64,000 nucleotides of DNA, from assembly GCF_057098645.1 (NCBI RefSeq), contig NZ_CM169472.1. One strand, given 5' to 3'. Made by a program: the position numbers. Shown here one piece after another: positions 38,701-44,700 of the stretch. Numbering within the stretch: position 1 is the stretch's first letter; the number at the start of each line of letters is the position of its first letter.

Positions 38701-41700
38701 CATTTATATGGCTTCATTTGTTGTAATCTGCTGCGTCTCAAGGGATATGTTTATGAGAGCGACCATGAGTGTTTGATTATATACCTAACATATCAAGGGA
38801 TTAGAAATCGATAAATCCCCATGAACGAAAAAATAAAATACGGCCTGTCGGCTGCCGTTCTGGCGCTGATTGGTGCAGGTGCTTCTGCGCCTGAAATCCT
38901 CGACCAGTTTCTGGATGAAAAGGAAGGTAACCACACCACGGCATACCGTGATGGTGCGGGGATCTGGACCATCTGCCGTGGTGCCACCCGGGTGGATGGT
39001 AAGCCTGTTATTCCTGGCATGAAGCTGTCAAAGGAAAAATGCGACCGGGTTAATGCCATCGAACGTGACAAGGCGCTGGCATGGGTGGAGAAAAACATCC
39101 GGGTGCCGCTGACCGAACCCCAGAAAGCGGGGATCGCGTCATTCTGTCCGTACAACATTGGCCCCGGTAAGTGCTTCCCGTCGACGTTTTATAAACGAAT
39201 TAATGCAGGCGATCGAAAAGGTGCCTGTGAGGCGATTCGCTGGTGGATTAAGGACGGTGGCAGAGACTGCCGTATCCGTTCAAATAATTGCTACGGTCAG
39301 GTCTCACGGCGTGACCAGGAGAGCGCGCTGGCGTGCTGGGACATCGACAGATAGCAGAATATTTTCCTGAAAAATGACGTTGGCCAACGCGGGTGGATAA
39401 CACGAAATCCTGAAAACTGGTAAAACCTAAGTGAATAAAAGTAAAAACCCCGTTTGTTGGCAGCAAGCGGGGTTTTGTGTTTTCTGACCTTGAGTAAGGC
39501 AAGGGAGAAATTATGGGTAGGGAGGTACTTTCCCTGTGAGGAAGTATAAAAGATTCTTTCTGAGGTTGTCCATTATGAAAGGCATTGAAGTGGAGACGCC
39601 AGCCAGTCTGGATTTAACAAGAGCGGCTGAACCGCCCCGGGTTTCCTGGAGAGTGTTTTATCTGTGAACTCAGGCTGCCAGATCATCGTTTCCGATGGAA
39701 GCATAATAAGCTTTTTCTGCTTCTGCCGGAGGAGTATGGCCCAGCCTTTCCAGCAATCGTCGATTGTTATACCAGTCCACCCACGTGAGTGTGGCCAGTT
39801 CCACTTCTGCACGGTTTTTCCAGCTCTTACGGTGTATTACCTCCGCTTTGTAAAGACCATTGATGCTCTCCGCCATCGCGTTGTCATACGAGTCGCCTGT
39901 ACTTCCTGTTGATGCCAGTAATCCGGCTTCCTTAAGCCGCTGTGTGTAGGCCAGCGATACATACTGAGAACCTTTATCACTGTGATGGACCGTGCCGGAC
40001 GGTCGACGGGCCCATAACGCCTGCTCCAGTGCATCCAGCACGAATGTCGTCTCCATGGACGATGAGACCCGCCACCCCACAATGTATCCGGCAAACACAT
40101 CAATGATGAACGCCACATAGACGAAGCCCTGCCATGTGCTGACGTAAGTAAAATCAGCCACCCACAGCTGGTCAGGTCGTTCTGCCACGAACTGACGGTT
40201 TACGCGGTCGCCTGCGGCAACGGCTTTCCGGCTGATGGTCGTACGGACCTTTTTACCCCGGAGAACACCGGCAAGTCCCATAACCGCCATGAGACGTGCC
40301 ACAGTGCATCTGGCCACTCTGATACCTTCCCGTAACAACTGACGCCAGACTTTACGCACACCGTATACCTTGTGATTTTCATCGTATACGCGCTGTATCT
40401 CTTTCTTCAGCCAGTCATCGCGCTGCGCACGGGCACTGCGTTTATCCGGATGATGTCGCTGTTGCTGACAGTGGTAATACGTTGACGGGGCAATATGCAG
40501 TTCGCTGCATAGCGGTCCGACCCCGTACTGCTCACGCAGCTTATCCAGCAGTGGCATCATTTTTTCCAGAGGCGGTCGAACTCCGCCTTCGCAAAATAAG
40601 CGGAAGCCTGGCGAAGGATATCGTTACTGCGGCGCAGTTCACGATTTTCACGCTCCAGCTCTTTCAGACGCTGACGTTCAGCGGTGGTGAGCCCTCCATC
40701 ACCGCCCCCGGTATCCCGCTCATGCTGGCGAACCCAGACACGCAGAGTCTCCGGCGTACAGCCAATCTTTGGAGCAATGGAACAAATTGTCGCCCATTGT
40801 GAGTCATATTCGCCCTGACTTTCCAGAACCATACGGACTGCCCGTTGACGGACTTCAGGGGAAAAACGAGTATTTTTAGTCATCCTGTTTACCTCTTTCT
40901 CAGGAAGTTTAGTCTCCAGGATTCCCGGGGCGGTTCAGGCAGCTTTTGCCATTCGTATTGTGGCCATTGCTGTTCTGGTCTGGGCAATCCGTTGGTGGTG
41001 ATATGAACCGTGTTCTGTGCGTGGTTATCATTGTCCTGCTGGTGGCCTGTGGTGCGCTTAGTCTGGGGCTGAATCATTACCGTGATCACGCCATCATCTA
41101 CAAAGAGCAGCGCGATAAAAAAGCCAGTGAGCTGGAGCTGGCGAACGCGACAATTACTGATATGCAGATACGCCAGCGTGATGTCGCTGCACTTGATGCC
41201 AGATACTCGAGGGAATTAGCCGATGCGAGAGCTGAAAATGAAACTCTGCGTGCTGATGTTGCCGCTGGTCGTAAGCGCCTGCGCATCAACGCCAACTGTC
41301 CAGGCTCCTTGCGTAAAGCCCCCATCACCTCCGGCGTGGATAATGCAACCGGTCCCCGACTGGCAGAAGCCGCTGAACGGGATTATTTCATCCTCAGAGA
41401 ACGGCTGATGGCAATGCAGAAGCAACTGGAAGGAGCACAGGAATATATCCGTACCCAGTGTATACCGTGATGTTTTGTTATGAAGGTGTTACTGGTAACG
41501 TTAAGGTAATTTAACAAAGAGTCAGTTCCGGACTTTATAGTGTGCTCAGTTCATGGCCAAAAACGATTTCTGTGATAAATATTTTGAATATTATTTACAG
41601 GTAAATGGAGTGGGGCACATGGATAGAAATATTACAATAGAGAATGAAGTATATGCCCGTATTGTATGGGCAGAGAAGGCAAAAACACGGTAATTCCGTG

Positions 41701-44700
41701 TGTTGCCATGATACCTGATTGGCAGAATAGTTGTTTGGTTTTGAGTATATAGTCAGCGTTTTTTGTTCAGTAATTGCTCCCTCAAAAAATAATAAAATAA
41801 GGTGATTATTTTTGTTTATTATTTAGTTTTTTTTGTGTGTTGTTTTATTGTTTTTGCGTGGTTTGTTTTTTATTGTTATTTCATTAAGGGAAGGTAAATT
41901 CAGGATGGCAGTCTGTAGATAATCGGAGGTCACTTATGCTACATGATCACGTGGCAGAATGTCTGGAGAAAAAAGGACTGTACCGGAGAGCAGCTGAACG
42001 ATGGGCAAAAGTGATGGTACAGCTAAGTGATGACCAGAAAAGAAAAGTGGCGGCACAGAAACGAGCAGAGTGTTTGCGTAAGGCGCGCCGGACTCCGGTT
42101 TCACCGGTGAACCTGACCGAAATAAAACAAGCGGTCAACAGACTACATTCTGAGTTGGGAATGGGATTTGAAGAGCGGCGGGTATTCCGACGATATAAAG
42201 GGACAGGAGAACAGAATACGTCCGGAAACGCGCGGTCAAAAAAATGCTAAAAAATATCTGAGAGAGTTATTGCCTGTTACCATAAGAAAAAGCGACTTTA
42301 GTGGTCGCTTTTTGTGTCATATATAAGTCGTTTAAGTAAACCTGTCTGAACAGGTGCTCTGGTCGTGTTTTTCTTTGTTGGGTACAAATTGAGAATATTT
42401 TTCATTAATTAATCTTCTTCTGCAGGCTTCAATAACCCACGCTGAAAAATTACCTGAACCTTTCAGGTCAAGAGCGATGTTAATTTGTTCAATTATCTGG
42501 TTTGGAAATCGGATGTTGCGGGTTGTTGTTCTGCGGGTTCTGTTCTTTGATGACATAATGTTGCCCCGTATTCAGTGTTGCTGATTTGTATTATCTGAAG
42601 TTGCTTTTACGCTAATTTGATGCAGATCAATTAATACGATACCTGCGTAATAATTGATTATTTCTCGTGGTTTGATGGCGTACACACATGTCGTGATAAA
42701 CCTCATGTAGATGATAATTATTATCATTTTGCGGGTCCTTTCCGGCGATCCGACAGGTTACGGGGCGGCGACCTCGCGGGTTTTCGCTATTTATGAAAAT
42801 TTTCCGGGAACCATGTCCGGTTTCTCTGCAAGTTAACTACATGAAAAATATAAGAACGGGCTTTCCGTGAACCGGACATGCGCAAAAAATGGACATATAA
42901 ACCGGACATGATCGGTTTTGTGCTAATTGTGAGGTGAGAGTTTTTGCGAGGTGAGGAGTGGCTACGCAGACTGAAGTTGCCAGGCATTTAAGTCTGACCG
43001 ATCGCCAGCTTCGCAGATTGCAGAAATTGCCGGGTGCCCCGATATCAAATAAGCGAGGGCAACTGGATCTGGATGCCTGGCGCGATTTTTACATATCGTA
43101 TCTGAGGAGAAGTAAAAACGATGTGCCTGATGGCGATAGCGAAGACGACTATGAGGAGAAATTGCTTATTGCCAGATGGGAACTGACAGCAGAACAGGCT
43201 GTTACACAGCAGTTAAAAAATGAGGTGTCAAAAGGAAAACTTATTGACACCGGGTTCTGTATTTTTGCCCTCAGTAAGCTGGCAATGGCGTTATCCAGTA
43301 CGCTTGATTCCATCCCTTTATCCATGCAGCGACAGTTTCCTGATTTAACACCGCGCCATCTTGACCATCTGAAAACCCTTATTGCTAAGGGGGCAAATCA
43401 GTGTGCGCGGGCAGGGGATAAATTACCGGATTTACTCGATGAATATATCAGAGCAACAACTGAATAATATGATGGCTGCCGTTTCGGTTGCGCTGCAGCC
43501 TCTGGTCAGGGTTGTACCAATGACGGCAGTTGAATGGGCTGATCAAAATTATTATCTGCCTAAAGAATCCTCATACGGTGAGGGCGAATGGAAAACGCTG
43601 CCATTCCAGATCGCCATTATGAACTGTATGGGTAACGACCAGGTTCGCACGGTTAACCTGATTAAATCTGCCCGTGTTGGCTATACAAAGATGTTGCTGG
43701 GGGTGGTCGGGTATTTTATTGAGCATAAATCCCGAAACAGTCTGCTTTTTCAGCCCACGGATTCTGCCGCTGAAGATTTTATGAAGTCTCACGTGGAGGC
43801 GACGATTCGGAACGTGCCATGCCTGAAAGACCTTTCCCCATGGCTGGGTCGTAAACATCGTGACAATACTCTCACGCTGAAACGCTTTTCATCGGGCGTC
43901 GGTTTCTGGTGCCTGGGCGGCGCTGCCGCCAAAAACTACCGTGAAAAATCCGTGGACGTGGTCTGCTATGACGAACTTTCCTCGTTCGAGCCGGATGTCG
44001 AAAAAGAGGGCTCGCCAACCCTGCTGGGGGATAAGCGTATTGAGGGGTCGGTGTGGCCAAAATCCATTCGCGGCTCGACGCCTAAAATCAAAGGCACCTG
44101 CCAGATCGAAAAAGCCGCTAACGAGTCGGCGCATTTTATGCGTTTTTATGTGCCCTGCCCGCACTGTGGGGAGGCGCAGTATCTGAAATTTGGCGATGAG
44201 TCCACGCCTTTTGGGCTTAAATGGGAGAAGGACAGCCCCGAAAGTGTTTTCTACCTCTGTGAACATCATGGCTGCGTGATCCATCAGTCTGAACTGGACC
44301 AGAGCAACGGGCGGTGGATCTGTGAAAACACGGGCATGTGGACCCGTGACGGTCTGACGTTTTTCAGCGCCCGGGGTGATGAAATTCCGCCGCCGCGCTC
44401 CATCACGTTCCATATCTGGACGGCGTACAGTCCGTTTACCACCTGGGTACAGATAGTCTATGACTGGCTGGATGCACTGAAAGATCCCAACGGCCTGAAA
44501 ACCTTTGTGAACACCACGCTGGGCGAGACCTGGGAAGAAGCCGTGGGCGAAAAACTCGATCACCAGGTACTGATGGATAAGGTGGTGCATTACACGGCGG
44601 CGGTACCTGCCCGGGTGGTTTATCTGACGGCGGGCATTGACTCGCAGCGAAACCGTTTTGAGATGTATGTCTGGGGATGGGCACCGGGAGAGGAAGCTTT

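Follow-up and report, generated by a model that had tools for sequence, protein, structure and literature searches.

Does the lambdoid prophage in contig NZ_CM169472.1 (NCBI RefSeq assembly GCF_057098645.1) carry a virulence regulator of its bacterial host and, if so, which one? The question arises from an original prediction, made from a 64-kb stretch of this contig (hereafter the window; all coordinates are window positions), that a PerC-like open reading frame (ORF) of 104 amino acids (aa) lies behind a T-rich region between the lysis cassette and cos, and that the prophage may thus carry a virulence regulator. The ORF proved to be real, and its 100% identity to PchA of Escherichia coli O157:H7 Sakai allows the cautious wording to be upgraded to the statement that the prophage carries pchA. 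Our best explanation, to which we assign a probability of roughly 0.93, is that an Sp4-like lambdoid prophage of attaching-effacing E. coli here carries its pchA orthologue, a 'moron' lodged in the Rz-to-cos slot where phage lambda has bor.

The ORF matched the Pfam PerC profile PF06069 with 149.3 bits (E=3.8e-44; gathering score, 22.6 bits), its residues 1-89 aligning to profile positions 1-89 of 90. A chance ORF is ruled out by this E-value. We aligned the product with those of the five pch genes of Sakai and of perC from plasmid pMAR2 of enteropathogenic E. coli (EPEC) E2348/69. It is identical to PchA (ECs_1091) at 104 of 104 positions, 99% identical to PchB (V6L) and 98% identical to PchC (V6L, V58M); the values for PerC, PchE and PchD are 47%, 40% and 29%, respectively, and all three of these proteins lack the basic C-terminal tail of group 1, GEQNTSGNARSKKC, which is present in the window ORF. 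The alignment of PchA-E and PerC has 16 invariant columns. The family-conserved residues A7, L10, E11, G14, R17, R18, A19, R22, W23, C46 and G75 (PchA numbering) are all found in the window ORF; among 73 diverse members of the PerC family, R17 is invariant and each of the others is at least 90% conserved.

On the basis of this alignment, the ORF belongs to group 1 of the family ('PerC1', that is, PchABC), given its near-identity to PchA, PchB and PchC, its length of 104 aa, its tail and its location in the Rz/Rz1-to-cos/terminase slot of a lambdoid prophage. Within the group, it has the PchA-type allele (V6, V58), and the prophage occupies the chromosomal site of Sp4: window 3255-16517 corresponds to positions 1-13263 of the Sakai Sp4 record (L003), 13.3 kb that are collinear at 99.1% identity and contain sulA, sxy, yccS, yccF, helD, tusE and the integrase gene, which places both elements at the same insertion site. 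Most of the remaining prophage matches Sp4 at 98-99%, and identity to the Sakai pchA locus is 99.7% over the Rz-pch segment (41400-42413; 98.8-99.7% across comparisons). Because of the identity to PchA and the shared chromosomal site, the ORF is, as judged by sequence, the pchA orthologue of an Sp4-like prophage, a gene that is already known.

The placement of the gene between the lysis cassette and cos was likewise borne out (Table 1). The cassette ends with Rz, 82.6% identical to lambda Rz at the DNA level, with Rz1 embedded in it, and the 12-nt cohesive-end sequence GGGCGGCGACCT lies beyond pchA in lambda-like flanks, followed by Nu1 as the first gene past cos. In a comparison of 80 nt with lambda (30 nt before cosN, cosN itself and 38 nt after it), the 30 nt on the 5' side differ at one base, and cosN and the next 33 nt are identical. 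The original prediction was slightly loose only in placing the gene directly after Rz: the interval 41471-42250 does begin at the first base past the Rz stop and ends with the stop codon of the 104-aa ORF, but the Rz stop and the pch ATG lie 465 bp apart. The spacer between them contains a 46-aa ORF, a hairpin and the T-rich tract, which was also predicted correctly, with the AT skew reaching its minimum of -0.56 at a GC content of 23% at 41750-41899. The ORF is intact, with the Shine-Dalgarno (SD) motif GGAGG 6 nt before its ATG and a terminator hairpin after it, both of which we counted in favour of the pchA assignment. This hairpin has the shape of a bidirectional intrinsic terminator, with a predicted stability of -15.1 kcal/mol (z=-2.67) that was equalled in none of 200 shuffles; a consensus terminator scan missed it, probably because the A and T runs are absorbed into the stem. 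A sigma-70 promoter scan of 41400-43000 returned two sites compared with a shuffle mean of 3.5, and we claim no pch promoter in this region.

Table 1. Features of the pchA locus and associated prophage elements in the window
Feature	Coordinates	Strand	Evidence or remark
dicF small RNA gene, early region of the pchA prophage	18550-18601	-	Rfam RF00039, 76.9 bits, E=3e-15
IS629/IS1203-type element (IS3 family) between the endolysin gene (R) and Rz	39628-40937	-	1310 bp; 96.1% full-length identity to Sakai Sp14 IS629
Transposase ORFs of the IS629-like element	39670-40560, 40557-40883		ORF list
ALIL frameshift pseudoknot in the IS629-like element	40486-40602		RF01497
Rz (i-spanin), final gene of the lysis cassette	40946-41470	+	Pfam Phage_lysis, E=2.9e-46
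Rz1 (o-spanin lipoprotein), embedded in Rz	41223-41408	+	Pfam Rz1, E=4.1e-19
46-aa ORF in the Rz-pch spacer, function unassigned	41553-41693	+	PHROGs phrog_2157, E=2.7e-37, 46/46 positions
Short GC-rich hairpin with minus-strand T-run, terminator-like; overlaps the 3' end of the 46-aa ORF	41685-41701	-	Terminator scan
AT-rich, T-biased tract, pch upstream/leader region	41750-41900	+	GC 23%; AT skew -0.35 to -0.56
Shine-Dalgarno motif GGAGG of pch	41925-41929	+	Seen in sequence
pchA, 104-aa PerC-family group-1 (PchABC) regulator, ATG start	41936-42250	+	Pfam PF06069; alignments
Candidate DicF pairing site in the pchA coding sequence (nt +79 to +105, codons 27-35)	42014-42040	+	RNAduplex with DicF nt 1-24
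Hairpin A5-GCGAC...GUCGC-U5 between pchA (+) and the convergent DUF3950 gene (-)	42287-42313	.	RNA fold
YlcI/YnfO-family (DUF3950) small gene, convergent with pchA	42332-42556	-	Pfam DUF3950, E=1.2e-17; NCBIfam YlcI_YnfO_N, E=1.6e-8; phrog_949
cosN, 12-nt cohesive-end sequence	42763-42774	+	Sole occurrence in the window
Nu1, small subunit of terminase	42958-43467	+	Pfam Phage_Nu1, E=1e-18

What the gene would do for its host can be put together from published work. According to the literature, Pch would remove silencing by H-NS at the LEE1 (ler) promoter of LEE (locus of enterocyte effacement), Ler would then be made, and Ler and Pch together would switch on the remainder of the LEE type III secretion island along with non-LEE effectors. 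Pch has been reported to activate the LEE1 promoter only when this promoter is repressed by H-NS/StpA/Hha/YdgT, and to reduce H-NS occupancy at LEE1 both in vivo and when the nucleoprotein complex was reconstituted (PMC4764244). Genome-wide, Pch binds many H-NS-covered prophage loci, and 88% of the Pch-bound regions lie within H-NS-bound regions of low GC content, with no direct interaction between Pch and H-NS found in that study (PMC4764244). As cited in PMC6265319 from Iyoda and Watanabe (2004), the group-1 pch genes, but not pchD and pchE, are required for full expression of ler and espA and for adherence. Activation of LEE1/ler by PchA is thus documented for the identical Sakai protein (PMC4764244; PMC6265319). 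The anti-silencing and DicF-activation steps of the mechanism come from the literature, and the identity, family, anatomy, context, distribution and DicF complementarity of the gene from the present analysis.

Two layers of control appear to be superimposed on this activity. One would follow from the location of pch inside the phage late transcription unit. Among regulators, the pch genes show some of the strongest induction by the SOS-inducing antibiotic sulfamethoxazole-trimethoprim (SMX-TM; PMC6265319), and placement between Rz and cos, on the late-operon strand, would explain such induction. The other would operate on translation: the SD region of the pchA mRNA would pair with a segment within the coding sequence, and the small RNA (sRNA) DicF, encoded by the same prophage, would relieve this pairing. 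In the accounts of Melson and Kendall (2019) given in PMC7769764, PMC7873438 and PMC9438474, translation of pchA is blocked by an anti-SD sequence inside the coding sequence and freed by pairing with DicF under low oxygen.

In the window, a dicF gene that scores well above the Rfam gathering score of 48 is located in the early region of the prophage, 23 kb from pchA, as in Sakai Sp4, which also harbours dicF and pchA on one prophage. The first 24 nt of DicF are predicted to form a duplex with the candidate site in the coding sequence at -27.6 kcal/mol (z=-4.0), a value matched by 2 of 1000 dinucleotide shuffles; full-length DicF yielded unrealistically long pairings in duplex and cofold predictions, so only the duplex formed by the first 24 nt was used, together with shuffles. 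The candidate site overlaps a candidate anti-SD (42024-42035) that could pair with the SD/start region, and in an alternative fold 41925-41936 pairs with 42024-42035. The SD is base-paired in every predicted fold of the leader and coding sequence, with a probability of being unpaired of about 0.06-0.3. Taken together, the DicF site and the SD pairing are consistent with the published model but fall short of proof. With regard to other prophages, dicF and pch also occur on the same element in Sakai Sp4 (dicF at L003 15733-15784), Sp11 (L001 2197-2248) and the O26:H11 pch prophage (L012 3082-3133); the early region of Sp14 gave no DicF at the Rfam threshold, though dicB is annotated there.

Indirect evidence from the distribution of the gene favours a link to the LEE. 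Of 5426 complete E. coli genomes, 672 have the 860-bp pch module with the coding sequence, the median copy number among these being three, and 686 of the 687 matching records show at least 99% DNA identity; in 15 places the module resides on plasmids or phage-plasmids. Listed hosts include O157:H7, O55:H7, O26, O103, O111, O121, O145 and O80, as well as atypical EPEC such as E110019. The ler gene, in turn, was detected in 696 of the same 5426 genomes, invariably as one copy. When 60 evenly spaced rows were drawn from each of the two match lists, seven accessions were in common, compared with about 0.7 expected if the genes were independent and about five if the two sets coincided, although this is a rough estimate given that the samples are not random. 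Close relatives of the prophage (O145 RM9873-C1, E105, OkiPb01717) occur in the ler match list. The best match to the 24-kb early region of the window among the complete genomes covered 86% of it, with 99.1% identity over 10 kb. We infer that the genome from which the window derives carries the LEE.

Several observations weigh against the assignment of pchA as an active LEE regulator in this strain. No part of the LEE was detected in the 64 kb analysed, by tblastn with Ler, GrlA, EscN, intimin, Tir, EspG and EspF or by blastn with the whole Sakai LEE. Three different segments were predicted as the partner of the SD, depending on the fragment folded, so that the exact anti-SD is not fixed, and the DicF duplex is not unique, given that a few other 355-nt tiles of the window score equally. 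The predicted fold of Pch has no recognisable DNA-binding motif. Finally, the IS629-like insertion sequence (IS) between R and Rz could weaken late-operon read-through into pch.

The last of these points leads to the possibility that the gene is intact yet effectively silent, IS insertions having degraded the prophage and cut the module off from late transcription. The lysis cassette is interrupted 1 kb upstream of pch by the IS629-like element, at a point where Sakai Sp4 has no IS; an IS21-type element is inserted at 33.7-35.8 kb; and a leader with 23% GC is of a type that H-NS silences. However, over the 465 bp upstream, the locus has 99.7% identity to Sakai pchA, which is expressed and functional although Sp4 is more rearranged, with an inversion flanked by IS629, implying that the pch genes do not depend on late read-through. 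Accordingly, we consider a silent gene quite improbable, and the window copy of pchA is presumably expressed. Functional divergence of the protein itself is even harder to credit. The PerC family is heterogeneous, and PchD and PchE, which share the Pfam domain, are reported not to be needed for LEE expression, PchE repressing curli and flagella instead (PMC6265319; PMC4332760); conceivably, then, the ORF could be an inactive or otherwise specialised homologue of this type and no LEE activator. A PchD- or PchE-type homologue is, nevertheless, ruled out at the sequence level by identities of 29% and 40%, respectively, as opposed to 100% to PchA, and the window ORF has the group-1 tail.

A broader alternative concerns what the gene was selected for. 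Its prime role might be to serve the prophage by countering H-NS in general and lifting the silencing of AT-rich prophage DNA (late genes, effector morons), LEE1 being one target among many. The location of pch inside the late operon and the binding of Pch to H-NS-covered prophage loci fit this scenario, as does the spread of the family. A word-indexed homologue search returned relatives only from E. coli and E. albertii, all of them close, and an exhaustive profile search expanded the PerC family to about 296 clusters at 50% identity; PerC-like proteins are scattered over several PHROG phage families (phrog_994, 33603, 10396, 1324, 2608, 868), and distant PerC-family genes reside on E. coli and E. 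albertii plasmids as well as on plasmids of Salmonella, Klebsiella and Pantoea that have no LEE. Conversely, the exact PchABC sequence and ler occur in similar numbers of genomes, and only two short fragmentary contigs with an O157 host matched the pch module among 50,697 deposited phage genomes, a near-absence that argues for a link to host virulence over a general phage function. Although we regard a primarily prophage-serving role as unlikely, it adds to the reading of the gene as pchA of an Sp4-like prophage and does not exclude it.

For the pchA orthologue of an Sp4-like prophage, the value of the result is one of annotation, not of discovery: the element can be designated an Sp4-like prophage of attaching-effacing E. 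coli, either enterohaemorrhagic (EHEC) or atypical EPEC, with pchA, a master positive regulator of the LEE. As a gene, pchA serves as a good indicator that the source strain is of a LEE-positive pathotype, and the un-inverted order of lysis genes, pchA and cos is presumably the ancestral layout of the module, which was rearranged in Sakai. The knowledge of Pch itself is unchanged; the residual interest lies in the dicF-pchA linkage, the 46-aa ORF, the intact arrangement and the tetratricopeptide repeat (TPR)-like fold.

These elements can be combined into a tentative joint reading, about which we are more doubtful than confident, namely, that the prophage is a self-contained cassette, with the early dicF and its late pchA mRNA target travelling together, and that PerC-family proteins are perhaps not classical DNA-binding transcription factors. 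If so, the dicF-pchA linkage, shared with Sp4, Sp11 and the O26 prophage, would mean that oxygen-responsive activation of the LEE can be gained in one lysogenisation. Regarding the protein, a PDB sequence search for a solved relative of PchA found none, even at E-values up to 10. An AlphaFold2 model based on 73 diverse family members has a mean predicted local distance difference test score (pLDDT) of 84.6, with residues 1-50 above 90, and comprises four helices that lead into a disordered basic tail. The modelled fold resembles a TPR helical hairpin and contains no helix-turn-helix; such a fold would fit displacement of H-NS via protein contacts or through an unusual DNA-binding mode.

Two other LEE regulators can be compared with the gene. 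PerC of EPEC E2348/69 (pEAF/pMAR2) belongs to the same Pfam family and is 47% identical over residues 2-88 (tblastn E=1e-17); unlike pchA, however, perC is plasmid-borne, the third gene of the perABC operon, and its 89-aa product lacks the basic C-terminal tail. Both PerC and Pch are reported to activate the LEE1 promoter and to be interchangeable between EPEC and EHEC (PMC4332760), although LEE expression in EPEC needs PerC only under particular conditions whereas EHEC requires Pch (PMC4764244). Ler, the LEE-encoded H-NS paralogue, resembles Pch as a horizontally acquired anti-silencer that acts against H-NS at virulence loci (PMC4764244). The two proteins differ in that Ler is a DNA-binding protein of the H-NS family, whereas Pch is unrelated in sequence and is modelled as a four-helix TPR-like hairpin; furthermore, Ler alone hardly alters H-NS occupancy, which is lowered by Pch (PMC4764244).

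Among the prophage-borne group-1 genes, those encoding PchB (ECs_2182, Sp11) and PchC (ECs_2737, Sp14) share the gene order Rz/Rz1 - pch - cos - terminase with the window and show about 95% DNA identity to it over the whole module of 1.4-1.6 kb. They differ in belonging to other prophages at other integration sites and in the AT-rich tract 5' of the SD. In an alignment of five loci, the T-rich tract (41750-41900) of the window showed no difference from that of Sakai pchA; by comparison with the loci L002 and L005, its portion just 5' of the SD, 41771-41900, was the most divergent stretch among the pchA, pchB and pchC modules, which are otherwise 95-99% identical, with pchB the furthest removed. 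Divergence of this tract could underlie unlike expression of the three genes.

Sp4 itself differs from the window in architecture. The stretch running from holin to pchA is inverted in Sakai, with IS629 sequences on either side, whereas in the window it has the native lambda-like orientation; the homology between Sp4 and the window stops 163 bp past pchA at an IS629, and the window runs on into the DUF3950 gene, cos and Nu1. The window, for its part, has a single IS629-like copy, which lies between R and Rz, plus the extra IS21-type element.

In lambda, the Rz-cos slot is taken up by bor, as it is in Sakai Sp8. The pch module stands in place of lambda 46428-48156 (bor, p78, p79), and homology resumes beyond it, lambda 48157-48502 aligning to window 42409-42762; with lambda 1-45 added, the alignment extends over window 42409-42807 at 88.5% identity. 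Both bor and pch are accessory genes for host fitness or virulence inserted between lysis and packaging, but there is no sequence relationship between them: the product of bor, on the opposite strand, is an outer-membrane lipoprotein, and that of pch, on the late-operon strand, a cytoplasmic regulator.

The conserved 46-aa ORF in the spacer is unannotated in the RefSeq records that we examined. It is open in all five loci compared (the window, Sp4, Sp11, Sp14 and the O26 prophage), although as many as seven amino acids are changed. Its protein-coding status is uncertain because the upstream sequence has no clear SD motif and most substitutions in the Sp14 copy alter the amino acid.

Further elements of the prophage lie upstream of the lysis genes. 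The IS21-family element (approximately 33670-35800, + strand), which is additional to the content of Sakai Sp4, is located between a tRNA/STnc100 region and a SASA/DUF6645 esterase gene; it encodes an IstA-like protein (33772-34944) with rve and Mu-transposase C-terminal domains, and IstB (34941-35741; IstB_IS21 E=2.5e-90). Its position is the one where Stx phages carry stx, and no stx gene is present there. A gene for an AraC-type helix-turn-helix regulator (32012-32725, + strand), the counterpart of Sakai ECs_1087 ('AraC-family transcriptional regulator'), is found just 5' of the phage tRNA cluster and represents a second prophage-borne regulator on the pchA element. Rfam matches at 27854-28028, 32754-33000 and 33080-33270 correspond to the sok antitoxin RNA (hok/sok), three phage tRNA genes, which form a cluster of the ileZ-argN-argO type seen in Sakai, and the sRNA STnc100, which lies downstream of the Q antiterminator gene (30040-30420).

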